From: an uncultured Planctomycetia bacterium
GTDB taxonomy: Bacteria; Omnitrophota; Gorgyraeia; Pluralincolimonadales; Pluralincolimonadaceae
Assembly (NCBI GenBank): GCA_964484255.1
Contig: CAZAEH010000004.1
Location: forward strand, 2,282-66,281
Length of the DNA: 64,000 nt
Direction: 5' to 3'
Positions 1 to 56,461 of the stretch are shown in pieces. Every line of letters starts with the position of its first letter. Position 1 is the first letter of the stretch. The position numbers and the translations under genes are program-made. The notes beneath the pieces are model-generated. The model had not been told where the DNA came from. It was given only the letters and a program-made list of their open reading frames with translations, and did not search any database.

Positions 1-371
1 GAGATTTTGAGCTTCTCTGAAGCGAATTCACGCGACCTTACCGCCTGCAGGATCCTGGCGCTGCGCTCCTTTGCCTCTTTTAATGTCACATCCCTAAGAA
101 GGACCAGGAACTCATCGCCTCCAAATCTCGCAAGCAGGTCCTTTCCGCCAAGGCCGTCCTTCAATAATCCGGCCAGGGACACCAGGACTTCATTGCCGGT
201 GTTCCTTCCGTACCAGCGGTTGACGCGTTCGAGATTATCTATGTCAACAAGAAGCAATGCAACACTAGGGAGCACTCTCTTATCTTTAGAGCCGGATATC
301 TCGTTATCCAGGACACCTATGATATCCTCTATTTTATTAGGGCAACCTATGCTCCCACAAGCTTCTTCCAT
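1..371 (-). CDS. Stand-alone GGDEF-domain diguanylate cyclase; the ORF continues past the window edge (C-terminus off window), so this is partial.
   Basis: Reverse-complement translation from ATG at 369-371: MEEACGSIGCPNK...LLLVDIDNLERVNRWYGRNTGNEVLVSLAGLL...RFGGDEFLVLL. An intact GGDEF motif and the DID motif are present. SIGCPNK aligns to the LTGLPNRR start of the domain, so there is no N-terminal sensor. An in-frame stop lies upstream at 414-416 with no alternative start. This ORF is not in the supplied track. Confidence 0.6.
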   Translation of the reverse strand, partial: MEEACGSIGCPNKIEDIIGVLDNEISGSKDKRVLPSVALLLVDIDNLERVNRWYGRNTGNEVLVSLAGLLKDGLGGKDLLARFGGDEFLVLLRDVTLKEAKERSARILQAVRSREFASEKLKI

Positions 372-5109: not shown

Positions 5110-5433
5110 CTATTCCTTGAGCTTTACAGCCGTTCCATAAGCATATACATAACCGCTGTAATTGAAGTAATTGATACCTACTACGTAATCGGCTCCAAGG
5201 TCCCTCGCGGTATCCTTTAATTTTCCGTTAAGGCCGTCGAGATTCACCTCTCCTCCGCGAGCCGAGATTATTCCTATTACTTTGTATGACTCCTTCAGGT
5301 CCCCCGTGGTAAGGACGATCTCTTTCTGTTTGCCGTTGGAACCCTTGTTCTTGGGCATCACCTGGGCATCAATTGTCGAAACCAATACCAGTGCAGCCAA
5401 AACGGCTGCAACTATAAATATATTACGCTTCAT
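5110..5433 (-). CDS. YbjQ/UPF0145 (DUF74) family protein with an N-terminal Sec signal peptide
   Basis: 107 aa. Signal peptide MKRNIFIVAAVLAALVLVSTIDA. C-terminus LGADYVVGINYFNYSG..YGTAVKL resembles E. coli YbjQ LGADAVVGIDIDYE..VSGTAVK. Confidence 0.5.
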   Translation of the reverse strand: MKRNIFIVAAVLAALVLVSTIDAQVMPKNKGSNGKQKEIVLTTGDLKESYKVIGIISARGGEVNLDGLNGKLKDTARDLGADYVVGINYFNYSGYVYAYGTAVKLKE

Positions 5434-6554
5434 AGTACCGGTTCTCCTCTGGAATCAAGTACCGTAGCCGTAAGGAAGATCAAAAGGTTCTTCTTCGCAC
5501 TGGTGCTGTGATGGGTCTTAAAAAGATCCCCTACCAGCGGGAGATCTCCCAGTACGGGCACCTTCCTCTTCGTGACATCCTCAGTCTCCCTGATAAGGCC
5601 GCCGATAACAACAGTTTCTCCGCTTTTTAGGACTACCGACGTCTGCGTAGTCCTGGTATCTATTATGGGGTAACCGAGCCCGTCAGGAAACTCATCTGCG
5701 GCTGAAATCGGCACCTGGTCGACCAGGACACTTACTTCCGGATGTATATCCATGGTGATTATCTTGTTGTCGCCTGAAACGGTAGGAGTGACTTCAAGCA
5801 TGATCCCGGTAACCTTTTCGGCAACTTTATATACCTCGACCATGATAGGCCTGCCGGTAGTACCGATATTCGTCCTCGTGAAATCGGAGGCATAGGGCAC
5901 TATATTGGCAAGCTGTATGTTGGCCATCTGCCCGGAAAGCGTCGTTACCGTAGGCGACGAGAGCAGGTTTAACTTGCCCTGCTCCTCAAGGGCCTTTATA
6001 TGCATTCGTATCTGGTTACCTGCAGCCGTGAAAGTGCCGAGTTGTAAATCCAGACCGCCGGCTTCGTTTGCAAGCCCGAATACACCTGCAAGATCATCAT
6101 TGGCATCGCTTCTGTCCAGCATGGAACTAGAGAACATACTTACGCCGGTATTGCTGAAACGATTATTCTTTTCCGCGGAGCGGTTGGGTCTGTACCATTC
6201 CCATTCCACTCCAAGTTCTTCTATATCGGTAACATCTATCTCCACGAACCTGGCCTGGATCTTAACCTGGCTGGGACCGGTGTCCCAAAGCTCGATTAGG
6301 TCCCTTGCCAATACCTGGTTGGTCGGGGTGTCCGTTATAGTCAAAACACCGGTGATATCATCCATCACTATCTTCCTTTCCGGGTTCTCCGGTAGGGCCT
6401 GCTGAAGATAGTCTTGAATATTGTCGGCCTCTCCACCTGATGAGATTTCTCCTGCCCCCTCGCTTTCCGCCTGGGCAAACACGTTTGAAGAAACAAAAAA
6501 AGCAAAGGCCGTTATAACCGTTGCAAATATCAAAACCCGGACGGTCATCTTCAT
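5430..6554 (-). CDS. Short secretin (signal peptide, single N3-type domain, C-terminal secretin domain; no N0 domain)
   Basis: 374 aa. N3-like segment QVKIQARFVEIDV. Secretin C-domain VPVLGDLPLVGDLF ... NLLIFLTATVL. Paralog of the next gene. Confidence 0.8.
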   Translation of the reverse strand: MKMTVRVLIFATVITAFAFFVSSNVFAQAESEGAGEISSGGEADNIQDYLQQALPENPERKIVMDDITGVLTITDTPTNQVLARDLIELWDTGPSQVKIQARFVEIDVTDIEELGVEWEWYRPNRSAEKNNRFSNTGVSMFSSSMLDRSDANDDLAGVFGLANEAGGLDLQLGTFTAAGNQIRMHIKALEEQGKLNLLSSPTVTTLSGQMANIQLANIVPYASDFTRTNIGTTGRPIMVEVYKVAEKVTGIMLEVTPTVSGDNKIITMDIHPEVSVLVDQVPISAADEFPDGLGYPIIDTRTTQTSVVLKSGETVVIGGLIRETEDVTKRKVPVLGDLPLVGDLFKTHHSTSAKKNLLIFLTATVLDSRGEPVL

Positions 6555-7642
6555 CTTACCGCCTCCCCTCTGGCATTGATGATGCTCGCCGTGATGAAAA
6601 TAAGGAGGTTCTTCTTGCGCTGGTTCTTGTAATCATATTGGAACGCCTTGCCCAGGACAGGAATATCTCCAAGTACGGGTACCTTCATCTTCGTTATAGT
6701 CTCTTCATCCTTTATCATGCCGCCTAACACTATCGTCTGTCCGCTGTCAACAACAACACTCGTCTGGGCGGTCCTTACATCCACAACCGGCCAGCCTAAC
6801 GAATCAGGGATCAACGGCACGGCATCTGTCGCGGTGACGTTTCCGAGCTGCCCGGTCTCACCGCTCGTGGTCAACGTGGATATGCTTACCTGGTCCTTAA
6901 GGATACTTACCTCGGGATGCAGGTCCAGGGTTATGGTATTGGAGCCTTCGGTCACATAGGGAGTAGCTTCAAGGAATATCCCTATGGGTTTCTCAGCCAA
7001 TGTAAGTTTATAACTCCATATAGGATCTTCGGCCGTACCTATGTTCTCAAGGGTGAAATCCGACACATAGGGCTGCGTCCTTACAACCTGGATATTGGCC
7101 ATCTGTCCTGCGATCGTGGTGATCTTAGGTGAAGACAAAAGGTTGGCTTTGCCCTGTTCGGCCAACGCTCTAAGATTGGCAACAAAATAATCGCCGCCTT
7201 CCAGGATCTTAAAGAGCATCAACTGGCTGGCATAACTTCCGGAAAGCGGGAAAGCTCCCGCAGCGCTGTCCCAGACAACCTGTCCCGGCCCGACCCTGCT
7301 GCCCCTGAGACCCTTATTGCTGGTATGGCCTTCATGCATCTCATAATATTCTACGCCAAGTTCCCAGAGATCGGTAACATCGACTTCGACGAACCTTGTC
7401 TCTATCATGACCTGTTTAGGCCCGACCTCGTACTGCTTAATAAGGTCCTTTATGAGGGATTGGTTCGTCTTCGTGTCTGTCACCGTAAGGAGCTTCGTGG
7501 CCTGGTTGTATGTTATTTTCCTGCCGTCCTGCGGGGGCAGGCTGTTCTGGAGATATTCGGCAATGGTAAGATCTTCCGAAGACGCGATACAGGGGAGCCC
7601 CAAAAGGGAAACGACTGCTAGAATAAGGAGATTTTTTCTCAT
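6551..7642 (-). CDS. Short secretin paralog (signal peptide, N3-type domain, secretin domain; no N0)
   Basis: 363 aa. QVMIETRFVEVDV; VPVLGDIPVLGKAF...NLLIFITASII. Overlaps the downstream paralog by 4 nt. Confidence 0.8.
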   Translation of the reverse strand: MRKNLLILAVVSLLGLPCIASSEDLTIAEYLQNSLPPQDGRKITYNQATKLLTVTDTKTNQSLIKDLIKQYEVGPKQVMIETRFVEVDVTDLWELGVEYYEMHEGHTSNKGLRGSRVGPGQVVWDSAAGAFPLSGSYASQLMLFKILEGGDYFVANLRALAEQGKANLLSSPKITTIAGQMANIQVVRTQPYVSDFTLENIGTAEDPIWSYKLTLAEKPIGIFLEATPYVTEGSNTITLDLHPEVSILKDQVSISTLTTSGETGQLGNVTATDAVPLIPDSLGWPVVDVRTAQTSVVVDSGQTIVLGGMIKDEETITKMKVPVLGDIPVLGKAFQYDYKNQRKKNLLIFITASIINARGEAVR

Positions 7643-7644
7643 GT

Positions 7645-8760
7645 CTATTCCTGTTTGGTCTCGAATTCTTTCAGTTTAACTTCCCTGGTCTTACGTTCCG
7701 GATATTTAAGTTTGTAGGTCCTGGTAACCAAGTCTTCTTTCTGTATTACGGATTTGCTTGATACATAGACGTAATTCGGTTCTACTTTATATGCCAACTG
7801 CGTTGTCTTGAAAGCTATATCCAATACATCAAGAAGTGGCATAGGAGTAGCCGTGCTCAAGGAAATCTTTATAGGGCTGTCTTTTGTGAGGTTGGCAAGC
7901 TCCCTCTCGTCGACAACAATCGTAACACCCGTCATCTCCATCAGCTGGCGGATAAGGTCTTGGATATCCGCATCGGTTACCGAGATCGCCGGGACCATTA
8001 CGCTGCGCATCTTGTCGACCAGGGCTTTTTTCGCTTCCTGCTCGGCCCTTTCGGCCTCAGATATAACTTCTTCTATCTGTACCTCTTCCTTAGCCGGAGG
8101 CGTAGGAGGCAACCAACTCCTGTCTACGTCCCGCAGCGAAGCCTGCTCTGCGGTTTCCTTTTCCTCGCTTATAACCTGTCTGTCTTTAATTATATCCTTG
8201 CGCTCCTCAAGCGTGGACTTTTCCCTGAGATAATAGTTTTCGGCTTTTTGGGCTTTCTCAAGCCATAGACGCGCCTCTGAATCATTTGGGTTGGCCGCGA
8301 GAGCAGTCTCAAAATCGCTTACCGCCGCGGAATACTGCTTATTGGCATAATTGGCCTTACCCCTCTTTACCATGGAACCCGTTACCGTTCCCGGAACATC
8401 CTTAACTATCCCTTCCTTGCATAACTCGACGTAATGGACCGCAGACTTGTTCTTGGGGTCCATCTGGACGATCTTCTCGAACAGTTGTTGGGCAGTTTCG
8501 TAATTTTTGGCTTCGTATTCTTTTTTAGCTTGGCTGAAGAGGTCTGAAATAACGGTTTTCCGTTCGATCTTCTTTTGCTTTGCGAGGTCCTGGGCTACTA
8601 TCTTGGCTTCAATGGACTCATCGGAGTACGCTGAAGTGCTTGCTGCGCGGGCTTCACTTCCCGAGAAATAAAACAATGAGATAATAAAGAACAAATTAAA
8701 AGTCAGGCAAATACAAAAAAACGGCAGTACCGTTCTTTTAACCCCATTGGTAATATCCAT
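7645..8760 (-). CDS. Membrane-anchored TPR-repeat protein with a C-terminal secretin-N0-like domain
   Basis: 371 aa. N-terminal TM segment, TPR-like repeats (AKNYETAQQLFEKIVQMDPKN; KQYSAAVSDFETALAANPND). C-terminus ISVTDADIQDLIRQLMEMTGVTIVVDE...ISLSTATPMPLLDVLDIAFKTTQLAYKVEPNYVYV aligns to the N0 domain of the full-length secretin at 51116..52876 (ITLDFKDADIQNVLRVLAFKSGINIVAGKEV...VDVPWEQALAVILNTYGFAYERDGNIITV). Confidence 0.55.
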   Translation of the reverse strand: MDITNGVKRTVLPFFCICLTFNLFFIISLFYFSGSEARAASTSAYSDESIEAKIVAQDLAKQKKIERKTVISDLFSQAKKEYEAKNYETAQQLFEKIVQMDPKNKSAVHYVELCKEGIVKDVPGTVTGSMVKRGKANYANKQYSAAVSDFETALAANPNDSEARLWLEKAQKAENYYLREKSTLEERKDIIKDRQVISEEKETAEQASLRDVDRSWLPPTPPAKEEVQIEEVISEAERAEQEAKKALVDKMRSVMVPAISVTDADIQDLIRQLMEMTGVTIVVDERELANLTKDSPIKISLSTATPMPLLDVLDIAFKTTQLAYKVEPNYVYVSSKSVIQKEDLVTRTYKLKYPERKTREVKLKEFETKQE

Positions 8761-20574: not shown

Positions 20575-21075
20575 CTATCTGGTCCAGTTCGTTACGTTGT
20601 CCGTGCCTCCGACCACCCTGTCCGGACCATACGAAATAATATCGACATAATAGCCGCCGTGTCCCGAAGTATCAGGATTAGTGTAAGTTAACGCCGTCCC
20701 CCACGCATCTATTATCGTATTACCTCCGGTAAGGTCACCGTCCTTGAACGTCATGTACGGCCCCGACCAGTTGGTGGTGGGAAGGGAATAAGAAGTTACG
20801 GTACCTATAGTATAGGTACCCGTATTGCTGACCAGGCAGTTGTAAAGGTTAGTGTTGCCGCTCGAGGGATAACCGCCGAGGTCAGCCTGGAACATCCCAA
20901 TGCCGGTCTCTATCGCGGCTATCATCGCTTTGGTGCGGGCTATCATCGCCTTCTGCCTTGCGGTCTGGGCGGCAGCCGCCACCAATCCCGCTAACAGCAA
21001 TATTATAGTCATGACGACCACGAGTTCTATTATGGTGAAACCTTTCTTCCTGTTCGCCCTAACCATATTAACCAC
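20575..21075 (-). CDS. gspG: GspG-like major pseudopilin
   Basis: 166 aa. KGFTIIELVVVMTIILLLAGL, then a GspG-like body (PYMTFKDG...DAWG). Confidence 0.7.
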   Translation of the reverse strand: MVNMVRANRKKGFTIIELVVVMTIILLLAGLVAAAAQTARQKAMIARTKAMIAAIETGIGMFQADLGGYPSSGNTNLYNCLVSNTGTYTIGTVTSYSLPTTNWSGPYMTFKDGDLTGGNTIIDAWGTALTYTNPDTSGHGGYYVDIISYGPDRVVGGTDNVTNWTR

Positions 21076-22333
21076 CTCCTAAAGCGGTTACGAGCTGGAA
21101 GAGCGGCATGAACATGGCTATTACTATGAAACCGACTATCATACCCAGCCCGATGATCAAGAACGGCTCGAGCAACGACATCAAGCCCGTTACCGTGACA
21201 TCTACTTCTTCATCATATACATCGGCAACCTTCAGCAGCATCTGGTCCAAGGCACCCGTCTCCTCCCCTACGGAGATCATGTTAACGGCCATCGCAGGGA
21301 AGAGCCCTGCCTTAAGCAAGGGCTTGGCTATCGTCTCTCCTTCCCTTACCGCATCATGAACCACCACTATAGAACGGGCCATCGCCTCATTGCCGGTAGT
21401 GTCCTTTGAGACCATAAGGGACTGCAGTATAGGAACACCGCTTGATAACAGTGTCCCGAGCGTCCTCGAGAAACGGGCAATGGCTATCTTCCTCAACAAC
21501 TGACCCATTACCGGTATCTCCAACTTACCCTTGTCGATCAGGAGCTTTGTCACGGGCAAACGATATAGGACATTCCATAGGACGATGAGCAATACTATCG
21601 AGCCTATACCGATATACCATTTGCTCCTTGCAAAATCGCTGACCACGAGCAGGACTTTGGTCATTACCGGCAGCTCCACGTCCATTTCTTTGAATATCTG
21701 CAAAAATTTGGGGACGATAAACGTTATAAGAAAACCCAGGACCGATAGAGCCATGGTAAGAACGAGGGCGGGATAGACCATGGCCGATTTTATCCTTCCC
21801 TCCAACCTTTGGGATTTTTCGGCAAACTCCGCAAGACGGGTAAGCACCACTTCGAGCACACCGCCGGCCTCGCCCGCTTTTACCGTATTTACATACAGAG
21901 GGGGGAACGCCTTGGGAAACTTCGAAAGCGCTTCGGAAAAGGAGCTGCCGCCTTCGACCTGCTCTGCAAGCCCGCGGATAGTAGTCTTCAATACCCCCGA
22001 CTTCTCCTGCCTTTCGAGGACATATAAGGCGCGGACAAGGGGCAGACCGGAACCTATAAGGGTAGCCAGCTGCCTGGTAAACACGGTTATCTGCTTGGCG
22101 CTGACACCTCCGAACGACAAACTTAAAACTGACTTCGCCGGCTTGGGGCCGCCGGGTATCTCCCTGCTCCTCAAGGGAGAACCGTTACCTTTATCCTTCT
22201 CTTCGTTGATACTTATGGGATAAAGGCCTTTCTGGCGCATCTGTTCCATGGCATCCTGGTTTCCGGAAGCCTCGAGCCTGCCCTTGCTCTCCTTGCCGTC
22301 CTTGTCTATAGCGACGTAATTGAAGATGGCCAT
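21068..22333 (-). CDS. gspF: Type II secretion / type IV pilus inner-membrane platform protein
   Basis: 421 aa. Two GspF repeats and three TM segments. Confidence 0.85.
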   Translation of the reverse strand: MAIFNYVAIDKDGKESKGRLEASGNQDAMEQMRQKGLYPISINEEKDKGNGSPLRSREIPGGPKPAKSVLSLSFGGVSAKQITVFTRQLATLIGSGLPLVRALYVLERQEKSGVLKTTIRGLAEQVEGGSSFSEALSKFPKAFPPLYVNTVKAGEAGGVLEVVLTRLAEFAEKSQRLEGRIKSAMVYPALVLTMALSVLGFLITFIVPKFLQIFKEMDVELPVMTKVLLVVSDFARSKWYIGIGSIVLLIVLWNVLYRLPVTKLLIDKGKLEIPVMGQLLRKIAIARFSRTLGTLLSSGVPILQSLMVSKDTTGNEAMARSIVVVHDAVREGETIAKPLLKAGLFPAMAVNMISVGEETGALDQMLLKVADVYDEEVDVTVTGLMSLLEPFLIIGLGMIVGFIVIAMFMPLFQLVTALGGG

Positions 22334-22403: not shown

Positions 22404-24137
22404 CTACATTACGGAAGATTGAGCCTCCTTTAGCACCTCTTCTGCGGTCGTGACCCCTGCGTTTACCTTTTCCAAGCCGTCGTCCAGGAGCGTCTTCATG
22501 CCGTTCTCAATAGCAGCTTTCCTTATAAGGGCTGTATGCGCCTTTTCTATTACGAGCTGCCTTATCTTTTCATTTAATACAAGGAGTTCATATATACCCG
22601 TCCTGCCTTTATAGCCCGAATTGTTGCATTTCACGCAACCCACGCCCCTGTAAAATTTCCTGTTCTTTGCTTCTTCGGGAGCCAGCCCCAGGTCGGATAT
22701 CAGTTCGGGTTCCGGAGTATACTCTTCCTTGCAGTTCTGGCATATCTTGCGCACGAGCCTCTGGGCAAGCACCGCTTCAAGCGTGGAAGTAACAAGGAAT
22801 GGCTCGATGCCCATATCGATCAACCTCGTGATCGTGCCTGCCGCGTCGTTGGTATGCAGCGTCGAGAAGACCAAATGTCCGGTAAGGGACGCCTGTATCG
22901 CTATCTGTGCGGTCTCGGCATCCCTTATCTCACCTACCATTATTATATCGGGGTCCTGCCTTAATATATGGCGAAGGGACGTGGCGAATGTAAGGCCTAT
23001 CTTGGCATTTATCGGGACCTGTATTACACCCTTAAGGTCGTACTCGACAGGATCCTCGGTAGTGATCACCTTATACTCTATCTTGTTTATCTCCCTCATA
23101 CATCCGTACAATGTAGTGGTCTTGCCGCAACCGGTCGGCCCGGTAGTAAGGAATATGCCGTTTGGCTTGATTATTATATTCCTTATCCTCTTCTTGGTTT
23201 CATCCAGCATTCCGACCTCATCTATAGAAAGGCTGACCGTCGTCCTGTCGAGGACCCTCATGACGATGCTCTCGCCGAATATCGTAGGCAAAGTAGAGAT
23301 ACGCAGGTCCACGCTCTTGCCTTCTATTGTGACCATGATACGTCCGTCCTGCGGAAGGCGGCGTTCGGCTATATCAAGGTTCGCCATGACCTTTATCCTG
23401 GATGACAGGCCAAGGCTCAAGTTCTTAGGAGGCCTGGCCACCTCATAAAGGACGCCGTCCACCCTGTACCTTATCCTGTAATCTTGTTCGAAAGGCTCGA
23501 AATGTATGTCTGATGCCTTCTCCCTGACCCCCTGGAGAAGTATCATATTAAGAAGCTTGATGACAGGGGCGCGTGAAGCAAGCTCCTGGAGTGTAGCTAT
23601 GTCATTTATCTCTTCCCCCTCAGGAACAAGCTCCATCTTCTCGCCAAAGACGCCGAGGACATCCTGTATCGTTTCGCCCTCGGAACCGTAATACCTTTGT
23701 ATCTGCTCTTTTATCTCCTCATCACTGGCAACCACACCCTTTATGTTCATTCCGAGGGTGAACCTCAGGTCGTCAAAAGCGGCTACATTTAGCGGGTCCG
23801 CTATGGCTATTGAAAGCTGGTTGCTTTCAACAGAAACAGGAAGTATGGTATATATCTTCGCAACGGAAGCCGGGACCTTGTCAATTACCTCCTTCGGGAT
23901 CTTCATGTCCTTGAGCCTGACCACAGAGAACCCGGACCGCGCCCCAAGCAGCTGCAGGATATCGTCTTCCTTGACAATGCCCATATCGACGAATATCCTT
24001 CCAAGAAGTTTGCCGGTAAGCTTTTGCTCTTCCAGCGCCTGCTCGAGCTGGCGTTCGTTTATCATCCCCTTCTCAAGGAGAAGCTGGCCTATCCGCTTGT
24101 ATTTTTCCTGTTTAGGTTGTTCTTTTTCGGCAGCCAT
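22404..24137 (-). CDS. gspE: GspE/PilB-family secretion ATPase with MshEN-type N-terminal domain
   Basis: Walker A GPTGCGKTT, Asp box, tetracysteine CQNC...CVKCNNSGY. N-terminal RIGQLLLEKGMINERQLEQALEEQ-KLTGK-LLGRIFVDMGIVKEDDILQLL matches the tandem 24-residue MshEN motif with a 5-residue spacer. Start set at Met7 (GGAG RBS upstream); the track ORF extends to 24155. Confidence 0.9.
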   Translation of the reverse strand: MAAEKEQPKQEKYKRIGQLLLEKGMINERQLEQALEEQKLTGKLLGRIFVDMGIVKEDDILQLLGARSGFSVVRLKDMKIPKEVIDKVPASVAKIYTILPVSVESNQLSIAIADPLNVAAFDDLRFTLGMNIKGVVASDEEIKEQIQRYYGSEGETIQDVLGVFGEKMELVPEGEEINDIATLQELASRAPVIKLLNMILLQGVREKASDIHFEPFEQDYRIRYRVDGVLYEVARPPKNLSLGLSSRIKVMANLDIAERRLPQDGRIMVTIEGKSVDLRISTLPTIFGESIVMRVLDRTTVSLSIDEVGMLDETKKRIRNIIIKPNGIFLTTGPTGCGKTTTLYGCMREINKIEYKVITTEDPVEYDLKGVIQVPINAKIGLTFATSLRHILRQDPDIIMVGEIRDAETAQIAIQASLTGHLVFSTLHTNDAAGTITRLIDMGIEPFLVTSTLEAVLAQRLVRKICQNCKEEYTPEPELISDLGLAPEEAKNRKFYRGVGCVKCNNSGYKGRTGIYELLVLNEKIRQLVIEKAHTALIRKAAIENGMKTLLDDGLEKVNAGVTTAEEVLKEAQSSVM

Positions 24138-24144
24138 GCTTACG

Positions 24145-25857
24145 CTACTCCTCATAGCCGTGCGTGATGCGCACGACCTCAGAAATTGTCGTTATGCCTT
24201 CCCTTACCTTATTAAGGCCGTCTTCCCTCAGGAGCTTCATGCCGTTGCGGCGCGCGGCTTCCCTTATCTCTTGCGAAGAAAGTCTCTTCACTATCATTTC
24301 GCGTATTTCGTCATTGTTGACCAGAAGCTCAAATATTCCGATCCTTCCCTTATACCCGGTATAATTACACATCTTGCATCCCTTGCCCCTGAACAGCTGC
24401 ATTCCTTCAACGGCTTTTGGATCGGCTGATTTTTGCCCGAGGACATATAACTCTTCATATGAAGGTTTATACGGCTCCTTGCAGTTCTGGCATATCTTGC
24501 GCACAAGCCTCTGGGCCATTACCGCCTGGACCGTAGAACTGACGAGATATGACTTGACACCCATATCTATTAGTCGGGTAAATGCGCCGGCGGCATCGTT
24601 GGTATGCAGAGTACTGAACAGCAGATGTCCCGTAAGGGCGGCTTGTATGGCTATAGATGCGGTCTCAAAATCGCGGATCTCGCCGACCATTATTACATCG
24701 GGCGCCTGCCTGAGCATAGTCCTCAAGCCCGAGGCAAAGGTAAGGCCTATCGAAGGCCGTACATGGACCTGGTTTATACCCGATATCTGGTACTCGACCG
24801 GGTCCTCTACCGTTATGAGTTTTTTGTTGGGTTTATTTATATAGCTAAGGGCCGCGTAAAGAGTCGTCGTCTTTCCGCTTCCGGTAGGGCCCGTAATAAG
24901 CAACATGCCGTACGGCAGGTGTATAAGCTTCTCGAAAGTCTCGGCATCCTCATGGAGGAATCCGAGTTCAGCGAGGCCAAGCATAAAACTGGATTTGTCG
25001 AGGATCCTCATGACCACGCTCTCACCATATATAGCCGGAAGTGTAGAGACGCGCAGGTCAAGGTCCTTGCCCATGCCTTGTATCCTGATCCTGCCGTCCT
25101 GCGGAAGGCGCTTCTCGGCTATATTCATGCCCGCCATGATCTTAAGGCGGCTCAATATGGAAGGTTGCAGCTGTTTTGGGGGGCCGGGAACTTCATGCAA
25201 GACGCCGTCTATCCTGTACCTTACGCGGAACTTGTCTTCAAGCGGCTCAACATGTATGTCGGAAGCGCGGTTCTTTACGGCTTCGGATATTATCTGGGTA
25301 ACAAGCTTTATTATGGGTGCCTCGTCTTTTTCCTCTTCTTTCACGACTTCAGCCGCGACACCTTTAAAAGACACCGTCGCGTTATCATTCTGTTTCTGCG
25401 CAACGGCATCCAGTATGTTCTTGCTTCCTCCATAATGTTTCTCAAGCGCTATATTTATGTTCGACTCGGAGCTAAGCACAAAATCAAGCTTCGAACCTGT
25501 AAACGTTTCAAGGTTATCCTGTGCCAGAAGGTTAATGGGGTCATCCGTCGCAACGGTCAGGATATCATTCTCGAATTTTATGGGAACTAACTTGTGGCGG
25601 TATGCTAATGCCGGTTTTACCTTGGAAAGGATATCGAAGGGGATCTCCATATCAAATATAGGGGTGCGCACAAGGGAGAATTCCTGGATTATAAGGTCCC
25701 TGAGCTGTTCGGTCTGGAGGAACCCTATACCGTTGAGGATATCGGAAAGGCGGTTTCCGGAATCAAGCTGCGATTTTAGGACACTCCTTAATTGGGATTC
25801 GTCAAGTATCCCTATCGACTTGAGGTATTCGCCTATAAGCCTGCTTCTATTGATCAA
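24145..25857 (-). CDS. Second tandem GspE/PilB-family ATPase (TTG start as called by the track)
   Basis: 570 aa. GPTGSGKTT, CQNCKEPY...CKMCNYTGY. N-terminal LIGEYLKSIGILDESQLRSVLKSQ-LDSGN-RLSDILNGIGFLQTEQLRDLI is MshEN-like. Confidence 0.9.
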   Translation of the reverse strand: MINRSRLIGEYLKSIGILDESQLRSVLKSQLDSGNRLSDILNGIGFLQTEQLRDLIIQEFSLVRTPIFDMEIPFDILSKVKPALAYRHKLVPIKFENDILTVATDDPINLLAQDNLETFTGSKLDFVLSSESNINIALEKHYGGSKNILDAVAQKQNDNATVSFKGVAAEVVKEEEKDEAPIIKLVTQIISEAVKNRASDIHVEPLEDKFRVRYRIDGVLHEVPGPPKQLQPSILSRLKIMAGMNIAEKRLPQDGRIRIQGMGKDLDLRVSTLPAIYGESVVMRILDKSSFMLGLAELGFLHEDAETFEKLIHLPYGMLLITGPTGSGKTTTLYAALSYINKPNKKLITVEDPVEYQISGINQVHVRPSIGLTFASGLRTMLRQAPDVIMVGEIRDFETASIAIQAALTGHLLFSTLHTNDAAGAFTRLIDMGVKSYLVSSTVQAVMAQRLVRKICQNCKEPYKPSYEELYVLGQKSADPKAVEGMQLFRGKGCKMCNYTGYKGRIGIFELLVNNDEIREMIVKRLSSQEIREAARRNGMKLLREDGLNKVREGITTISEVVRITHGYEE

Positions 25858-26029: not shown

Positions 26030-26425
26030 CTATTTCCTGGTAATAATAAAAACCGTCAAAAGCACTATCAGGATAAAGACAAGAATATAGAAATCGTTCA
26101 GGTAAACGAAATCCCTGACTTTATCAAAAAGCGAATACCTTTGCCTGCTTTGGGGTTCACTCGGAGGGGATAGATGATAGATGGGGACAGACTGGTGTTT
26201 TAGCACCTTTAGGCGGCTCTTAAGGGCCTCGACCTGTCCCTTCCTGAGCCTTATGAACTCCCCTCCTATCCTGTAGGCCGGGATCTTGCCTTCGGCCACG
26301 AAAGACCTGACATCCCCCTCGTCCAACTCGAGTATGCTTGCAGCTTCCTCGATAGTTATAAGCCTTTCGCGGTCGCTTTTCCCGTCCGGGACTCTATTTA
26401 ATTCTCTCCGAGCTGATCCATTCAT
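26030..26425 (-). CDS. Excisionase-family HTH (HTH_17) protein with C-terminal transmembrane anchor
   Basis: 131 aa. LITIEEAASILELDEGDVRSFVAEGKIPAYRIGGEFIRLRKGQVEAL; C-terminal hydrophobic segment FYILVFILIVLLTVFII. Confidence 0.5.
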   Translation of the reverse strand: MNGSARRELNRVPDGKSDRERLITIEEAASILELDEGDVRSFVAEGKIPAYRIGGEFIRLRKGQVEALKSRLKVLKHQSVPIYHLSPPSEPQSRQRYSLFDKVRDFVYLNDFYILVFILIVLLTVFIITRK

Positions 26426-26933
26426 CTATTTTAGCTTTGTCAAAATGAAGTTTATCGCCTTCCCTGATGGACGGCAGTTTTCCGTTAGATGTCCAATCCG
26501 ATACGACGGAGATATCCACTTCCAGATACCTGGCAACCTCATCTATATCCATCAACTGCGCTCCGGATTGGGAAACGCTTTTTATCCCGGAGGTCATCTG
26601 GCAGTTCCCGTTCAAGACAGAACCCTTGCCCACCTCAAGCAGGGGAGTGCGTATATTGCCGTCCACCCTGGCGGGTGAAATAAGCTTCAGGGATTTCTTC
26701 GCGACAACCTCGCCTGTTACCCGGCCGGCTATAGTAATCTCGTCGCCGGTTATGTTGGCGTTGACGAAAGCCTTCTCGCCTATGGTCAAAGTCCCCTTTG
26801 TGTCCAGGGTACCTTCGAACCTGCCGTTTATCTGCAGGTTCACGGGATCTTTGAACGACATGGTGCCTTGCATGCTGGCGTCTACGTCCAATACCTTCTC
26901 TTCAACCTTCTTGTTCTTGCCTATCATCGCCAA
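26394..26933 (-). CDS. Bactofilin (DUF583)-domain protein fused to a C-terminal excisionase-family HTH
   Basis: 179 aa. Bactofilin beta-helical repeats INGRFEGTLDTKGTLTIGEKAFVNANITGDEITIAGRVTGEVVAKKSLKLISPARVDGNIRT..GKGSVLNGNCQM. C-terminal MDIDEVARYLEVDISVVSDWTSNGKLPSIREGDKLHFDKAKIDEWI. Confidence 0.6.
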   Translation of the reverse strand: MAMIGKNKKVEEKVLDVDASMQGTMSFKDPVNLQINGRFEGTLDTKGTLTIGEKAFVNANITGDEITIAGRVTGEVVAKKSLKLISPARVDGNIRTPLLEVGKGSVLNGNCQMTSGIKSVSQSGAQLMDIDEVARYLEVDISVVSDWTSNGKLPSIREGDKLHFDKAKIDEWISSERIK

Positions 26934-51115: not shown

Positions 51116-52876
51116 TTACCTCGTATTCAGATATCCCGCGTTCCCATTAGCGGATTTCTTTGCTTTACTATATCCTTCCACCTTAATGCTGGAATCTTTT
51201 TTATCCTTGCCCTTGTCATCCTTCTTGGCCGGCTGCGGGCTTATGTTAGGCTGGCCGGCTTCGAGCGCTTGTTTGACCATCGCCATATCCTGCTCGGTTA
51301 ACTCGCCGGGTTTTATTATGCGCGCCGTGATAAAGATCAGGAGGTCGATCTTTTCTACGTCATCCGTGTACCTGGTGAACAACGCACCTAATACCGGTAT
51401 GTCGCTCAAAAGAGGGACCCCTATCTTGCCTTTCGATTTAACGTCCTTGAGCAGGCCTCCTATGACTATCGTCTCACCGTCCCTCATAAGGACCTGGGTC
51501 TCGGCTTCCCTCGTTACCAGTATAGGATATTCGTTATCGCTGACTGTCTCGGTAAACGACGATATGACAGGGTGGACTATCATGTTCACGTATTGTTCAT
51601 CGCCGGTTATCTGCGGGACAACATAAAGCTGTATACCGACATCCTGGTAGTACGCAAGGTTTATCGTGGCATTACCCGCCGTACCGGATATCTGGGTCTC
51701 GATTATTGGATACTTCTGACCGATTAGGATAAGGGCTTCCTGTCCCGATAACGTCAAAATCTTTGGAGCGGACAAAGTATTGGTCCTCACGTCCTCCTCA
51801 AGCGCATGGACCATCACTTCCATCTGCTTGCCCATAAGTTTCTCAAAAAGGACCTCTATACCAGCATTCTCGGCGGTCAACCCCGAAGCCAACGGCACGA
51901 AGTTTGCGGGGCTGAAACTGTTGTCATCGGAAGATGAATAATTCCGTCCGGTCATGACCCCGGTATGGTGCCCGCTTCCTACATTAACGGTACCTAAAAG
52001 GTCGCCGTTCGCATCGGTTCTTCCCGCATGGGTCTGGAGCCTTGTGCCTGTGCTGAATTCCACGCCGAGGTCTTTCAGGACATCCCTGTTCACTTCCATT
52101 ATCCTGGCCTCGATCAATACCTGTTGCGGCTTCACATCTATCTCTTTGAGTATCTTGGCTATCCTATCGAGGGAGCTCGGGGTATCTGTTATTATAAGGG
52201 AATGCGAACGCGCGTTCTCCCTTTCCCTGCGCTCCTTGCCCTGGTCAGTCTCCTGGCCGCCGGCCGCGGGCACACCCACCTTCCATCCCTTCTGCCCGGT
52301 TATCTCAAGGACCGATATCTTTCCCTGCGGGGACAACTGCGGCTCCAGCATCTTCTTGGCATCGACCGCATCCAGGAACTGCAGCGAAAAAACCTTGCTC
52401 GTCACGCCTTCTATCTCTGTCAATTCCCTTTGTTTCTCCCTGCGTTCCTTCAGGCCGTCCACGGTGGAGACCGTTATGATATTGCCGTCCCTTTCATAGG
52501 CAAAACCGTAAGTATTGAGTATTACGGCCAGGGCCTGTTCCCACGGGACGTCCACAAGGCGGATAGTTACCGTACCTACTACTTCCTTGCCGGCAACGAT
52601 ATTTATCCCGCTCTTGAAGGCAAGAACCCTGAGGACGTTCTGTATATCGGCATCTTTAAAATCAAGGGTAATATTCCCTGACTTATCTTCTCCTGCGGGA
52701 AGCATCTCGACCGGTTTTATGGTCACAACCGGCATCTCTTCCTCCTGCACTTCCACCTCTACTACCGGTTCATCCTGGGGCGGTAAAACTTCCGCTGCAT
52801 CCTGTCCCCAGGCAGGCAAGATAAAGACCGCCGACAAAAAACAGGTGAAAAGAATAACTGATATCCTTCTGGTCAT
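51116..52876 (-). CDS. pilQ: Type IV pilus secretin
   Basis: 586 aa. Signal peptide, N0 domain (ITLDFKDADIQNVLRVLAFKSGINIVAGKEV), N-domains, secretin C-domain (IGVPLLSDIPVLGALF...IDLLIFITARII). Confidence 0.85.
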   Translation of the reverse strand: MTRRISVILFTCFLSAVFILPAWGQDAAEVLPPQDEPVVEVEVQEEEMPVVTIKPVEMLPAGEDKSGNITLDFKDADIQNVLRVLAFKSGINIVAGKEVVGTVTIRLVDVPWEQALAVILNTYGFAYERDGNIITVSTVDGLKERREKQRELTEIEGVTSKVFSLQFLDAVDAKKMLEPQLSPQGKISVLEITGQKGWKVGVPAAGGQETDQGKERRERENARSHSLIITDTPSSLDRIAKILKEIDVKPQQVLIEARIMEVNRDVLKDLGVEFSTGTRLQTHAGRTDANGDLLGTVNVGSGHHTGVMTGRNYSSSDDNSFSPANFVPLASGLTAENAGIEVLFEKLMGKQMEVMVHALEEDVRTNTLSAPKILTLSGQEALILIGQKYPIIETQISGTAGNATINLAYYQDVGIQLYVVPQITGDEQYVNMIVHPVISSFTETVSDNEYPILVTREAETQVLMRDGETIVIGGLLKDVKSKGKIGVPLLSDIPVLGALFTRYTDDVEKIDLLIFITARIIKPGELTEQDMAMVKQALEAGQPNISPQPAKKDDKGKDKKDSSIKVEGYSKAKKSANGNAGYLNTR

Positions 52877-52877
52877 T

Positions 52878-53231
52878 TTATTCCTCCTGACTCCTTGAGA
52901 TAAGAACTATATCTTCTCCTGCCCTGTTTAGGGTAACTTCATCCTCTGTTATTTTTGTGACCTTATAATCCCCGAGTATATCACCCACCTTCAGGACGGC
53001 ACCGCTTATCAGGGCATAAGAATCCCCGCCCTCCGACCAGACTATTCCCTCAAGATTGAGTTGAACGGACGAGTTCGCCGGCCTGGCTTCCGGGAGTATG
53101 TTGCCGTCTTTGTCTACCAACGGCCTAAAGGGATCCCTTCTGTTATTGACGTTATATTTGAATACCGGCTGGGCAAAAACAAGCGGGACAATTATAAAAA
53201 CCAGGAAAGCGGCTAATATCGTCTTCCTCAT
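52878..53231 (-). CDS. pilP: Pilus assembly protein PilP
   Basis: 117 aa. Signal peptide, RRDPFRP motif, beta domain LKVGDILGDYKVTKITEDEVTL. Confidence 0.7.
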   Translation of the reverse strand: MRKTILAAFLVFIIVPLVFAQPVFKYNVNNRRDPFRPLVDKDGNILPEARPANSSVQLNLEGIVWSEGGDSYALISGAVLKVGDILGDYKVTKITEDEVTLNRAGEDIVLISRSQEE

Positions 53232-53860
53232 TTAGCCTTGGCCTCCTCATTCAGTACATAAGCGATTATGAGCAGCCTGGCGCTGTGGTTGGATATGTCA
53301 TCGGCGTTGGAATGTAATTCGATATCGCCTATAGACATCACATTGGGGGCAGTTTCAACCTTGTTTATAAACTCGGCTATTTCATGGTAGCCGCCTTTTG
53401 CCTCTACCTGAATAGGGATCTCGGAATATAATGCCTTAGGCTTTCCGGCTTCCTGCTTGGCAACAGGCTTGCCCTTGGCCCCGTTGGAAGGATTTAACTG
53501 TTTCTCAGAACGTAAAGGCTCTATCTTGCTTATCTTTACTTTGCAATCCGAAGCCATGCCTGAGATCTCTTGCAATATATTCGGCATGTCCGTATGTGCG
53601 GGTATGGCCTTTTCATAAGCATCTACCTGCGCAGTAAGTTTTTCAAGCCGTTTCTCGAGTTGCGGTTTATTTTTTATAAGGCTATCCGCATTCTTAAGGG
53701 CTTCGCGTTCCTTGTTTATATCCTTATTGAGTTTCCCGATCCCGCTCAAAAGCGGTAATGTCGAGAATTGGATAAGCGCAAAAAAAGCTATTGCTACACC
53801 TATGCCGATCAGGACAAGCTTTTCCGTCTCTTCTTTGGAAAGTTTCAGTTTCTCCGCCAA
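53228..53860 (-). CDS. pilO: Pilus assembly protein PilO
   Basis: 210 aa. Single TM then coiled coil. Position between pilN and pilP. Confidence 0.65.
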   Translation of the reverse strand: MAEKLKLSKEETEKLVLIGIGVAIAFFALIQFSTLPLLSGIGKLNKDINKEREALKNADSLIKNKPQLEKRLEKLTAQVDAYEKAIPAHTDMPNILQEISGMASDCKVKISKIEPLRSEKQLNPSNGAKGKPVAKQEAGKPKALYSEIPIQVEAKGGYHEIAEFINKVETAPNVMSIGDIELHSNADDISNHSARLLIIAYVLNEEAKAK

Positions 53861-53861
53861 G

Positions 53862-54476
53862 TTAAAGCCCTCTTCCTTTCTTAAAATGGCAGATTATGAC
53901 AAAATCCATTATCTCGGTGTTCTTGATCTTCTTCCTCTCGACTTTAGAGAGTTCTATCTCATCGAAATCGCTAAAGAATGACTGGTTATCTTTGAGGGCA
54001 TTGACAAAAGGACCTATGCACCCATCCTCGCGGCCGTCCCCAACCACACTCGAACCTTCTATTACCATGACCTCTTTCAGGACACCCGGTTCTCCGGAAG
54101 CTTCTCCCTTTTTTACGTCCAGGCTGCGCAGCCATATGCCGGGGACCATGGAATCTGAAAGGTCATTCAACTTCCTGGCCAGGTTGAACCTCGACGCCCT
54201 TAATTTATCCACGGCATCGGCCTTAATGGAAAGGGCCTTGACAGAGCTATCTACCTTTACCGCGTCAGAATTGGCAGTTTGCACCACTTCATTCTTTTTC
54301 TTCAGCGACGCCAATGTCGCCCCCTTGAATTGCAGGACGAGGAACAGCAATACCTGTATTGCAACAAGGGCAATTACTATGGCTACAGCTATCGGCACAA
54401 CAGGCAAGGCAGGAAGGTCAATGTGCTCCTTCTTCCTGACCCTCATCTGCACCGGCAAAAGATTTATCTCTATCAT
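53862..54476 (-). CDS. pilN: Pilus assembly protein PilN
   Basis: 204 aa. N-terminal IEINLLP motif, TM helix, coiled coil. Confidence 0.75.
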   Translation of the reverse strand: MIEINLLPVQMRVRKKEHIDLPALPVVPIAVAIVIALVAIQVLLFLVLQFKGATLASLKKKNEVVQTANSDAVKVDSSVKALSIKADAVDKLRASRFNLARKLNDLSDSMVPGIWLRSLDVKKGEASGEPGVLKEVMVIEGSSVVGDGREDGCIGPFVNALKDNQSFFSDFDEIELSKVERKKIKNTEIMDFVIICHFKKGRGL

Positions 54477-54477
54477 A

Positions 54478-55404
54478 TCATTGCCTTATAGCCAATCCTA
54501 TACATACCGCCATCTGGCCCGAGACTTCTTTAAGCGCCTTGGAATCCACTTTTGGCGAAATAACCAGTTTGGCCGTAGGGTCCCACACTACCATCTCTAA
54601 CCCGAAAGCCTGCTTAAGCCTTTCGTTGACTGCCGTATCCTTGGCCCCTCCGCCGCTTATATATATCCCGTCTATTCCCTTCCCAAACTGGTTCTCGTAA
54701 TAATCGAAAGACAGCCTTATCTGGGTCTCAAGGGCATCTATACTCTTGATATCAACCGGGATATCACGCGCAAAGTTAAGCGTTTCATCCTTCAATATAC
54801 AAACGTTCGTCATGCTGGCGCCTATATTGAGCAAAGCTACCGTCCTGTCCTTCCCGGCACCCGCATTATTGAAAACAAATGAGTTCGTTACAGCTATAGA
54901 ATCACAATCAACGGCTTCGGGCGCTATGCCTGCGTCGTTCATATAAGTTATGTATTCGCCCACGAGGTCCTTCTTTGCGGCTACTATAAGCACTTTTACC
55001 TTACCGCCCTCAACCTTGCCGCCGATTATCTGCGCGTCTATAAACACTTCATTTATACCGAAAGGTATGTATTTCTCGGCTTCAAATTGCAGCGCGGAAT
55101 GCAATTCATCGGAACTCATCTTTGGGAAAAGCACCTGCCTGACAACTACGGATTGGCCTGAGACCGATATCACCGCTTTCTGTATCTTCGTCTCCTGCTT
55201 AGCCATAAAACGCTTAAGGGCAGCAGCAACGCTTTCCCTGGAACGCTCTCCCTCTATCTGTTCAATGGAAAAACGGTCGATCTGCATGACACCCGTCTTT
55301 TGTTTTGAGATGACAACGGACTTTATTGAGGAGGTCCCGATATCCAGCGCGACCTTATTCCTTGCCGCGCCCAGGTTCAAGAAGGGGATTTTTATCTCTT
55401 TCAT
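54478..55404 (-). CDS. pilM: Pilus assembly protein PilM (actin-like ATPase fold)
   Basis: 308 aa. ALDIGTSSIKSVVIS. Confidence 0.8.
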   Translation of the reverse strand: MKEIKIPFLNLGAARNKVALDIGTSSIKSVVISKQKTGVMQIDRFSIEQIEGERSRESVAAALKRFMAKQETKIQKAVISVSGQSVVVRQVLFPKMSSDELHSALQFEAEKYIPFGINEVFIDAQIIGGKVEGGKVKVLIVAAKKDLVGEYITYMNDAGIAPEAVDCDSIAVTNSFVFNNAGAGKDRTVALLNIGASMTNVCILKDETLNFARDIPVDIKSIDALETQIRLSFDYYENQFGKGIDGIYISGGGAKDTAVNERLKQAFGLEMVVWDPTAKLVISPKVDSKALKEVSGQMAVCIGLAIRQ

Positions 55405-55407
55405 GTC

Positions 55408-55866
55408 CTATTCGATCGGCGTATCGGTGCTACCGGCCCTATTCCCGGCCTTAGCCCTTATTATACCCGTCTCATCGGTAAAAAAATACCTGTTGCCTGT
55501 CTTGCCAGGAGAAACAGGATCTGCGTTCAGATCAAAGTTCTCGGAGTCTGAAAATGAATAATCGAACTGATAGCCTTGCTTTTTCCCTTGGACAGCCAAG
55601 ACTGAATCAAGATACGGAGGATCGGATTTCGGCGCCGCAAGCTCATCAAGAGACGCCGGATAAGTATGGGGGTTGCTGTTCGTATAATAGCTTTGGCAGG
55701 CGGTTTGTATCGTCTTGCATGATACAATAGCGGAAGCCTCATTGGCATTTATCCTGGAAGTCAAGAAAATAGGTATACCAATGGCCGCCAAAGTTGAAAT
55801 GATGGCGATGACGATCATTATTTCAACCAAAGTAAAACCGTAGTTTGTATATTTTTCTCTCGCCAT
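55408..55866 (-). CDS. pilA: Type IV pilin (PilA-like)
   Basis: 152 aa. Class III signal YGFTLVEIMIVIAIISTLAAIGIP. C-terminal region paralogous to the pilins at 58700 and 59237. Confidence 0.75.
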   Translation of the reverse strand: MAREKYTNYGFTLVEIMIVIAIISTLAAIGIPIFLTSRINANEASAIVSCKTIQTACQSYYTNSNPHTYPASLDELAAPKSDPPYLDSVLAVQGKKQGYQFDYSFSDSENFDLNADPVSPGKTGNRYFFTDETGIIRAKAGNRAGSTDTPIE

Positions 55867-55874
55867 TGGATTTT

Positions 55875-55903
55875 AGTTTATATTTTTTACGCAAAAAAGT
55901 CAA
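55875..55903 (-). promoter_or_regulatory. Candidate promoter for pilA-pilMNOPQ
   Basis: Minus-strand TTGACT (55903..55898), 17-nt spacer, TAAACT (55880..55875), which ends 8 nt before the ATG. There is no SD. Confidence 0.35.
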
Positions 55904-55929
55904 GAAAAATTCCGAATTTTCACTAATCG

Positions 55930-55958
55930 TTGATATTGAAGCCGCGTTGTAGTATACT
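55930..55958 (+). promoter_or_regulatory. Candidate promoter for the divergent minor-pilin operon
   Basis: TTGATA (55930-55935), 17-nt spacer, TATACT (55953-55958). RBS GGGAGG 55965-55970. ATG at 55979. Confidence 0.4.
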
Positions 55959-55978
55959 TTTACAGGGAGGATAATAAG

Positions 55979-56461
55979 ATGTTTACCTCATGCGGGAAAA
56001 GAGGTTTCACCCTTCTGGAGTTGATGCTCTCTGCCGCAATACTTATCGTGGCGATAGGAGGGCTTTTATCGGCCTATATATTGTGCTTTCATCTTACCGA
56101 AACCGCAAAAAACACTACCCTTGCCACTAATGCCATCCAGCTTAAGCTGGAAGAAATCCGGGATACGGATTTTGATGAGATAATAACGGACTACGACCAC
56201 ACTACTTTCACAGTCAATGGTTTCAGCGCCGGGCAGGCTATCGGGTCCATAACCGTTGAAAGCATCACTACGGACCTGTTGATGGTAACCGTAAGCGTCT
56301 GTTGGAGACAGAGCGGAAACAGGATAATGGGCGAAGATAACGGCGGGGGCGGGGGCGTAGCTCTCAGCGGATATCTGGAAGGTACCGAAGATACTAATGC
56401 AAACGGTATTGTGGATTCGCCGGCAATGATCTCCACCCTAATGATCAACAGAGGTACATGA
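55979..56461 (+). CDS. pilV: Minor pilin, PilV-like
   Basis: 160 aa. KRGFTLLELMLSAAILIVAIGGLL. Confidence 0.6.
   Translation: MFTSCGKRGFTLLELMLSAAILIVAIGGLLSAYILCFHLTETAKNTTLATNAIQLKLEEIRDTDFDEIITDYDHTTFTVNGFSAGQAIGSITVESITTDLLMVTVSVCWRQSGNRIMGEDNGGGGGVALSGYLEGTEDTNANGIVDSPAMISTLMINRGT

Follow-up and report, generated by a model that had tools for sequence, protein, structure and literature searches.

Does the second messenger cyclic di-GMP (c-di-GMP) act on a secretion motor of an uncultured Omnitrophota bacterium, and if so, on which one? The question is raised by a 64-kb stretch of DNA (50% G+C; hereafter the window) in which a type II secretion system (T2SS)-like cluster encodes two GspE-type ATPases in tandem (A2 followed by A1) and a separate type IVa pilus cluster encodes a PilB (A3). 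All three genes, as well as that of a GGDEF protein at the window edge, lie on the minus strand (Table 1). A preliminary description of this DNA, in which the coordinates and the quoted peptides were exact and the strand was unstated, read the N-terminus of A1 as the published tandem c-di-GMP-binding motif of MshEN domains, found looser versions in A2 and PilB, and suggested that c-di-GMP gates the extension of a pseudopilus or pilus. According to our analysis, A1 is a GspE-type hexameric assembly ATPase of a T2SS-like pseudopilus machine, and its N-terminal domain is, judged by its sequence, a bona fide MshEN (GSPII) domain that probably binds c-di-GMP. The broader claim, that A1 binds the ligand while A2 and A3 do not, is one we favour with slightly less assurance.

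In 2016, Wang et al. (PMC5013675) reported MshEN motifs in >10,000 proteins from many phyla, where they typically form the N-terminus of a GspE/PilB ATPase encoded in a gsp or pil operon. The published pattern, RLGxx(L/V/I)(L/V/I)xxG(L/V/I/F)(L/V/I)xxxxLxxxLxxQ, occurs in tandem with 24 residues in each copy; positions are given below as I-1 to I-24 for the first motif and II-1 to II-24 for the second. In all six reading frames of the window the strict pattern had zero matches, and the extended pattern as well as the relaxed pattern of Wang et al. matched motif I of A1 alone. The reference motif of Vibrio cholerae MshE (VcMshE) was taken from PDB 5HTL (R9-LGDLLVEEGIVSEAQLEQALNAQ32-KNTGR-R38-LGDTLISLGFLSETQLLNFLAQQ61), and residues 15-67 of A1 align with R9-Q61 without a gap over all 53 motif residues. 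This alignment to the MshE N-domain, which had been proposed as a check, also places D108, the only contact from the C-terminal subdomain of MshE, on Asp114 of A1, in support of the original reading. Motif I departs from the consensus conservatively (Ile at position 2, Met at position 11) and motif II at two contact residues (Arg1 to Leu, Gln24 to Arg), so that the claimed fit to the published motif holds for motif I and the 5-residue spacer and was overstated for motif II. Position 3 is Gly in both motifs (G17, G46), the position-1 residues Arg15 and Leu44 satisfy the extended R/K/L capping requirement, and the hydrophobic triads (positions 2, 17, and 21) are present as I16/L31/L35 and L45/I60/L64. 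Position 24 is Gln38 in motif I and Arg67, outside the strict consensus, in motif II. One detail had to be corrected: Gly10 had been listed as a c-di-GMP contact, but the contacting glycine is that at position 3 (G11/G40 in MshE), Gly10 being the turn glycine between the helices.

The tandem two-motif architecture is also found in A2 and A3, and the three proteins were compared using a key score that counts 14 key positions, on which VcMshE scores 14, A1 13, A2 12, and PilB 9. The maximum among 2000 shuffles of the A1 N-terminus was 9 (mode 6-7) and all other open reading frames (ORFs) of the window scored ≤8; the motif is therefore real and well above chance. This score parts A1 and A2 from chance, not A1 from A2 (13 vs 12), which differ in the positions that were lost (contact Gly, terminal Gln) and in lineage conservation. 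Scores of ≥12 were reached by 41 of 70 unrelated GspE/PilB-like ATPases of other phyla, and of ≥13 by 20 of the 70; a phmmer search with residues 1-75 of A1 retrieved 5108 cluster representatives at E ≤0.001. With the N-domain of A1 as query, phmmer gave 1.4e-36 for PilF and 7.2e-15 for MshE (5HTL).

A finer scale is offered by the NCBIfam model NF053729 ('c-di-GMP_motif, MshE-related'; 53 positions, cutoff 38 bits). A1 reached 68.3 bits, placing it among proteins known to bind c-di-GMP: VcMshE (86.0 bits) and PilF GSPII-C (84.0 bits) scored higher, PilF GSPII-B (63.0 bits) and Myxococcus xanthus PilB (62.3 bits) lower. A3 passed the cutoff with 46.7 bits and A2 failed it with 31.5 bits. Because PilF GSPII-A, a non-binder that outscores A3, also passes (55.1 bits), a score above the cutoff is necessary-like, not sufficient. 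The Pfam model PF05157 ('MshEN') matches only residues ~67-167 of each of the three ATPases, which is the C-terminal subdomain, and is for this reason uninformative about the motif; comparison with an MshEN hidden Markov model, another proposed check, thus returned Pfam matches, but these, unlike NF053729, are silent on c-di-GMP.

Whether the departures in motif II matter can be judged from published variants. In MshEN the backbone amide of the position-3 Gly reads the guanine, and the position-24 Gln forms hydrogen bonds to the phosphate and the ribose 2'-OH (PMC5013675). Replacement of the glycines in MshE abolished binding (G11L) or made it 72-fold weaker (G40I; PMC5013675 supplement), and removal of the II-24 side chain (Q61A) caused a ~12-fold loss (Suppl. 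Table 1, PMC5013675); the relaxed search motif of Wang et al. permits R or K at position 24 (PMC5013675). An Arg at II-24, as in A1, could donate hydrogen bonds to the phosphate. A Leu at II-1 is found in PilF GSPII-B (L196), which binds at 6 nM and is 4-fold weaker as L196R, and the authors widened the start of the consensus to (R/K/L)LG (PMC11731258). Ile at Leu positions costs ~2-fold (2.4-fold; PMC12002112). Taken together, the published work shows that a match to the motif does not suffice for binding, nor is it a full requirement.

The site is well kept within the lineage. In a set of 121 A1 orthologs (57-99% identity, nearly all from Omnitrophota), Gly is found at I-3 in 94% and at II-3 in 95%, Gln at I-24 in 95%, and Leu at II-1 in 85%, while position II-24 is occupied mostly by Gln (64%) and less often by Arg (28%). 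The spacer Gly is ≥90% conserved, Asp114 is invariant in 45 A1 orthologs, and the six motif key positions together with Asp114 rank among the most conserved residues of the N-domain. As to the contact residues whose loss was to count against binding, the glycines and Gln I-24 of A1 are thus conserved, and Arg II-1 and Gln II-24 are replaced. The motif-model score, the precedents for the deviations, and this conservation make binding of c-di-GMP by A1 probable.

At residue 67 itself (23937..23939, minus strand), all A1 orthologs that are ≥75% identical to the window protein have Arg or Lys, and more distant Omnitrophota orthologs (~60% identity) have Gln.

The strongest competing explanation gives the N-domain of A1 no more than a structural or docking role, as a GSPII domain whose partner is the platform or the GspL-like PilM-PilN protein. 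Several observations lean this way. PilF GSPII-A fails to bind c-di-GMP even with all six deviant residues restored to consensus, its site being blocked by an extended, N-capped helix 1 and by contacts between the subdomains (PMC12002112), from which it follows that a good motif does not suffice; it passes NF053729 all the same, and it has in common with A1 an Arg at II-24 (R62). Structure does not separate the two outcomes either. The AlphaFold2 (AF2) model of A1 residues 1-170 (predicted local distance difference test, pLDDT, 83) has helices at 14-22, 28-41, 45-51, and 57-68 followed by a three-strand/helix subdomain, and Foldseek against the PDB superposed it on 5HTL_B with a template modelling (TM) score of 0.83 (root-mean-square deviation 2.4 Å) and on ligand-bound PilF-B structures with 0.72-0.74 (8PDK 0.72), but ranked the non-binders 9G1W (PilF-A), 2D28 (XpsE), and 7LKM (Xanthomonas citri PilB) beside these binders. 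The structure prediction that had been called for hence confirmed the two-subdomain MshEN fold and could not tell binders from non-binders. Further points weigh against c-di-GMP control at this locus: Pfam scans of the remaining window ORFs returned no PilZ, EAL, or HD-GYP domain, i.e., neither a phosphodiesterase nor a PilZ protein; no Rfam family reached its gathering score across the 64 kb, hence no c-di-GMP riboswitch; and the ATPase activity of MshE shifts by <10% with c-di-GMP in vitro (PMC5013675). On the other side, A1 has both contact glycines and Gln I-24, whereas PilF-A carries Ala, Ser, and His at key positions and XpsE eight changes. In addition, the contact positions of A1 are kept in 94-95% of the 121 orthologs down to 57% identity while the A2 encoded in the same operon drifts, which argues for selection on the ligand site specifically. 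A purely structural role of the A1 domain is therefore a minority view to us, though one that retains an appreciable share of the probability.

The drift of A2 is best seen in the tandem itself. A2 ends 7 nt upstream of A1, and the order A2-then-A1 is kept at 13 genome loci, at all of which the A1-type proteins keep both contact glycines, while the A2-type proteins lack Gly at II-3 in 13/13 and at I-3 in 10/13. The ATPase motifs (Walker A, tetracysteine) are retained in both types at 13/13 loci. In this genome motif I of A2 is good, and motif II has Ser at II-3, in place of the contact Gly, and Glu at II-24. In A3 the residues at I-3, II-1, II-3, and II-24 are Ala, Ser, Thr, and Glu, and its 121 PilB orthologs lack Gly at I-3 without exception and carry Ser or Asn at II-1. 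The looser versions reported earlier for A2 and PilB are indeed there, with the contact Gly of motif II lost in A2 and both contact glycines lost in PilB. Published effects of such changes are large: Ala at II-3 weakened binding 10-fold, Ser at II-1 abolished it in PilF GSPII-A constructs (PMC12002112), and reversing the charge at II-24 (Q218E) in PilF-B made binding 77-fold weaker (PMC11731258). A2 and PilB are for this reason best read as decayed GSPII domains and are probably weak binders or non-binders.

The family assignment of the three ATPases rests on profile scores. Pfam T2SSE matched A1 at 5.7e-142 and A2 at 1.4e-143, and MshEN matched A1 at 2e-20. On the NCBIfam GspE equivalog TIGR02533 (cutoff 630.25) A1 (656.1 bits) and A2 (634.3 bits) both pass, and A3 stays under the cutoffs of both the PilB model (646.7 bits) and the GspE model (601.2 bits). 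The ORF of A1 spans 22404..24155 (583 aa), of which public gene calls use the part from Met7 (22404..24137, 577 aa). Eight public metagenome contigs carry a protein identical to A1, and its orthologs are already named GspE by NCBI. Among genomes, UBA6215 matched best, with 98% protein identity.

The GGDEF protein had been regarded as a sensor-less cyclase with an intact GGDEF/DID active site and cited in the suggestion of c-di-GMP gating. Its gene, cut by the window edge, was recovered in full from a public contig with an identical GlgA (L085:11976-12494, between coaE and rho), and encodes 172 aa that are essentially a GGDEF domain alone, with no sensor or dimerising partner domain, so 'sensor-less' is apt. 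GGDEF domains need such a dimerising or sensor partner domain for activation. RFGGDEF and VDID are present, and the active site can be called intact with the caveat that Asn stands at the position of PleD Asp344. When the window protein was aligned with 49 Omnitrophota orthologs (56-97% identity; 50 sequences), the GGDEF motif and the metal-binding Asp were invariant or nearly so. The PleD Asn335 equivalent is present in the window protein, the guanine-specifying PleD Asp344 position is Asn in 38/50 and Asp in 12/50 sequences and differs even between 97%-identical orthologs, and an invariant NRWYGR replaces the usual NDxxGH throughout the family. An RxxD I-site was neither found in the window protein nor conserved among the 50 sequences. 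The catalytic competence of this lone domain is uncertain.

The gene shares 25 nt with coaE and 11 nt with rho, lies 22 kb from the ATPases with polA and glgA intervening before the secretion cluster, and belongs to a coaE-GGDEF-rho housekeeping operon; the order secretins-polA-glgA-coaE-GGDEF-rho-rpmE-prfA is kept in relatives as distant as 60% identity. The coaE/rho overlaps, the intervening polA and glgA, and this collinearity of the whole block led us to reject a functional link of the GGDEF gene with secretion by the cluster. The gene points to c-di-GMP signalling in this genome, not to a tie between such signalling and the secretion genes.

With A2, PilB, and the GGDEF gene described, the remaining explanations can be weighed. 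It might be held that A1, A2, and PilB are all c-di-GMP receptors and that pseudopilus and type IVa pilus are both gated by c-di-GMP from the nearby GGDEF protein, given that all three belong to the MshEN fold family, that A2 agrees at 12/14 key positions, that A3 passes NF053729, and that the PilF-B Q218E single mutant still binds at 460 nM (PMC11731258). We consider this improbable, as A2 combines Ser II-3 with Glu II-24 and falls under the model cutoff, A3 has changes at all four positions named above, such changes weaken or abolish binding in published assays (PMC5013675, PMC12002112, PMC11731258), the A2 and A3 lineages do not conserve the contact positions, and the synteny of the coaE-GGDEF-rho operon is kept independently of secretion function. 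The idea of c-di-GMP gating is thus plausible, on sequence grounds, for the T2SS-like pseudopilus machine through A1, and does not extend to the type IVa pilus, whose PilB has lost the contacts; c-di-GMP control, if it exists here, would fall on the former and not on the latter.

A more elaborate arrangement, just as doubtful or slightly more so, would be a mixed or alternating A2-A1 motor in which the A1 subunits sense a dinucleotide and the A2 subunits are blind, A1 having been retuned by the Gln to Arg change at II-24 and the ligand coming from the minimal GGDEF protein with its Asn/Asp polymorphism, constitutively co-expressed from the coaE-rho operon; the whole would form a streamlined circuit for c-di-GMP or a variant dinucleotide in a reduced, possibly predatory Omnitrophota genome. 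Least likely of all is that A1 binds another cyclic dinucleotide such as 3',3'-cGAMP, with Arg II-24 matched to the product of an Asn-type GGDEF: Arg or Lys at II-24 is fixed in the close clade, Asn predominates at the PleD Asp344 position, Hypr GGDEFs alter that same position (to Ser) and make cGAMP (PMC6456294), and VcMshEN binds cGAMP weakly (PMC5013675), but the bases are recognised through the backbone amides of residues 3 and 4, both unchanged in A1, the side chain at II-24 touches phosphate and ribose and not the base, the Asn/Asp flips between nearly identical orthologs suggest neutrality, and no Asn-type GGDEF with altered specificity is found in PMC6456294.

In the preferred reading A1 alone responds to c-di-GMP. 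Observed are the motif with its score on the motif model, the fold of the domain, and the pattern of conservation; binding, affinity, and regulatory effect are inferred. By homology with MshE and PilF GSPII-B (5HTL and 8PDK), the four-helix subdomain of A1 (residues 15-67) would bind one extended c-di-GMP monomer. Its two guanines would stack on the triads I16/I60/L64 and L45/L31/L35 and be capped by Arg15 and Leu44, while the backbone amides of Gly17/Gln18 and Gly46/Arg47 would read the Hoogsteen edges of these bases. Gln38 would hold phosphates and riboses together with Arg67, which stands where a Gln is usual, and Asp114 of the C-terminal subdomain would touch a guanine amino group. Binding may then favour a productive engagement of the motor with the platform, such that pseudopilus assembly or secretion would track cellular c-di-GMP, an effect proposed by analogy with MSHA pilus production, which depends on MshE, and with twitching and adhesion, which depend on PilF GSPII-B. 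The co-transcribed A2 and the type IVa PilB keep the fold and, with nucleotide contacts lost, probably show no direct response to c-di-GMP. The ligand might be supplied by the 172-aa GGDEF protein, which has no specific link to the cluster.

Among characterised systems, VcMshE (5HTL) is like A1 in its two-subdomain fold, the ungapped 53-residue motif with a 5-residue spacer, and the position of the domain at the N-terminus of a GspE/PilB-type ATPase. The two also share the contact glycines, the turn glycines, Gln I-24, the hydrophobic triads, and the D108 equivalent. A1 differs in the Leu start and Arg end of motif II and in Ile at two of the Leu positions, and it serves a T2SS-like cluster in Omnitrophota instead of the MSHA pilus. 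In Thermus thermophilus PilF GSPII-B (8PDK), motif II begins with the same LLGRI as in A1 (PilF DLLGRIL, A1 KLLGRIF), but the domain differs from A1 by a Lys at I-1, a Gln at II-24, and the deletion of one residue from motif II, and PilF carries three GSPII domains in series where A1 has one. A2 and A3 rather resemble PilF GSPII-A (9G1W), Xanthomonas XpsE (2D27/2D28), and the N-domain of X. citri PilB (7LKM), which retain the fold and have the contact Gly, the position-1 residue, and the terminal Gln replaced; A1 is unlike these in that its glycines and Gln I-24 are present. X. citri PilB works with a PilZ or FimX-type adaptor, and none was found in the window. By description, A1 has its closest functional precedent in Pseudomonas aeruginosa PA14_29490, a T2SS-type GspE that binds c-di-GMP (cited in PMC5013675), although the organism and the secreted cargo are unrelated.

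The genes around the ATPases are those of two separate machines. Downstream of A1 follow GspF, three pseudopilins (GspG-like), and large proteins of the PA14, beta-helix, and GspK-like kinds, then a PilM-PilN fusion and two short secretins. The fusion follows the domain logic of GspL, and the pairs EpsE-EpsL and PilF-PilM suggest by analogy that the N-domains of the ATPases probably dock on it in the cytoplasm. The large proteins, encoded among the pseudopilin genes (13090..19451, minus strand), comprise a PA14 protein of 953 aa, a beta-helix protein of 299 aa, and one of 858 aa with PilX_N and GspK-like segments, and may be giant minor pseudopilins or tip adhesins, which would agree with the giant adhesion genes reported beside T2SS-like loci in Omnitrophota; in a relative (L090), a gene of >2304 aa with NosD, PA14, and Laminin_G lies ~10 kb beyond the window edge. 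The short secretins (5430..8760, minus strand; 374 and 363 aa, in tandem) each have a Secretin domain and a weak Secretin_N match, and ahead of them stands a TPR protein of 371 aa that matches N0/STN faintly. This arrangement, kept in relatives (L085, L088, L090), could represent a secretin that is split or heteromeric. At 26030..26933 (minus strand), directly upstream of the two ATPases, a bactofilin is fused to an HTH_17 (excisionase-type) domain, and next comes a small HTH_17 protein whose hydrophobic C-terminal segment is, by eye, a putative transmembrane helix; both are kept in identical public contigs and could be regulators or localisation factors of the cluster.

The type IVa pilus cluster (51116..63901) encodes PilB, PilC, pilins, PilM/O, and PilQ. 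Directly upstream of PilB lies a further ATPase of 405 aa (62684..63901, minus strand), for which an assignment as PilT was rejected (163.7 bits on the PilT/PilU family against a cutoff of 319, and 564.6 bits on positions 165-562 of the PilB model). The protein is a PilB/GspE-like ATPase from which the entire MshEN N-domain is missing, and the type IVa cluster, too, therefore encodes a tandem pair of assembly-type ATPases. The window yielded no bona fide retraction ATPase.

Table 1. Positions within the 64-kb window of the three ATPases, their motif regions, and three further proteins.
Feature	Position	Strand	Basis
A1: GspE-type assembly ATPase, 577 aa, MshEN N-terminal then T2SSE ATPase domain	22404..24137	-	Pfam
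A1 motif I (aa 15-38), RIGQLLLEKGMINERQLEQALEEQ	24024..24095	-	sole six-frame match to extended/relaxed patterns; ungapped vs VcMshE R9-Q32
A1 spacer KLTGK (aa 39-43), 5 residues	24009..24023	-	same length as MshE spacer KNTGR
A1 motif II (aa 44-67), LLGRIFVDMGIVKEDDILQLLGAR; position 1 Leu, position 24 Arg	23937..24008	-	alignment
A1 MshEN domain, C-terminal alpha/beta subdomain	23673..23927	-	Pfam PF05157 match; AF2 pLDDT >90
A1 Asp114, equivalent of MshE D108	23796..23798	-	5HTL D108 aligned to Asp of IADP segment
A1 ATPase domain: Walker A GPTGCGKT, Walker B, His box, tetracysteine motif	22431..23582	-	Pfam T2SSE aa 192-575 of 583-aa ORF; motifs from translation
A2: GspE-type paralog of A1, 570 aa, 46% identical	24145..25857	-	Pfam, TIGR02533
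A2 motif region (aa 7-59): LIGEYLKSIGILDESQLRSVLKSQ / LDSGN / RLSDILNGIGFLQTEQLRDLIIQE	25681..25839	-	alignment, NF053729
A3: PilB, type IVa pilus cluster, 570 aa	60967..62679	-	MshEN fold family
A3 motif region: KIAEVLVNKGVVTKEKLDEAIKTQ / HEKGG / SLTKILVEKGLANENELLSIFSQE	62500..62658	-	9/14 key positions
GspF platform protein, directly downstream of A1	21068..22333	-	Pfam T2SSF, two domains; NCBIfam GspF 416.9 bits
PilM-PilN fusion, 545 aa, GspL domain logic	10207..11844	-	Pfam PilM_2 2.7e-35, PilN 4.1e-09
GGDEF protein, first 123 codons of 172 aa, cut by window edge	1..371	-	Pfam GGDEF 9.3e-20

What is described here is a known feature, a widespread and described receptor type, in a new lineage; the curated NCBIfam model already recognises the motif of A1, and knowledge of MshEN receptors is left unchanged by it. 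The locus does provide, within one genome, a natural contrast in motif residues between an intact A1, a half-decayed paralog from the same operon, and a fully decayed PilB, and the clade-wide change from Gln to Arg at a phosphate-contacting position is a further natural variant of the motif. T2SS-like machines of Omnitrophota have been placed beside giant adhesion or cell-wall-degrading proteins, and a role in predation has been suggested for them (bioRxiv 10.1101/2023.11.21.568195); the preprint on the giant genes of this phylum describes conserved T2SS-like loci with nearby pilZ genes and mentions neither c-di-GMP nor MshEN. If A1 does bind c-di-GMP, a conserved T2SS-like machine of the Omnitrophota would be under second-messenger control, and this would give a handle on how these uncultured bacteria switch on attachment or secretion.

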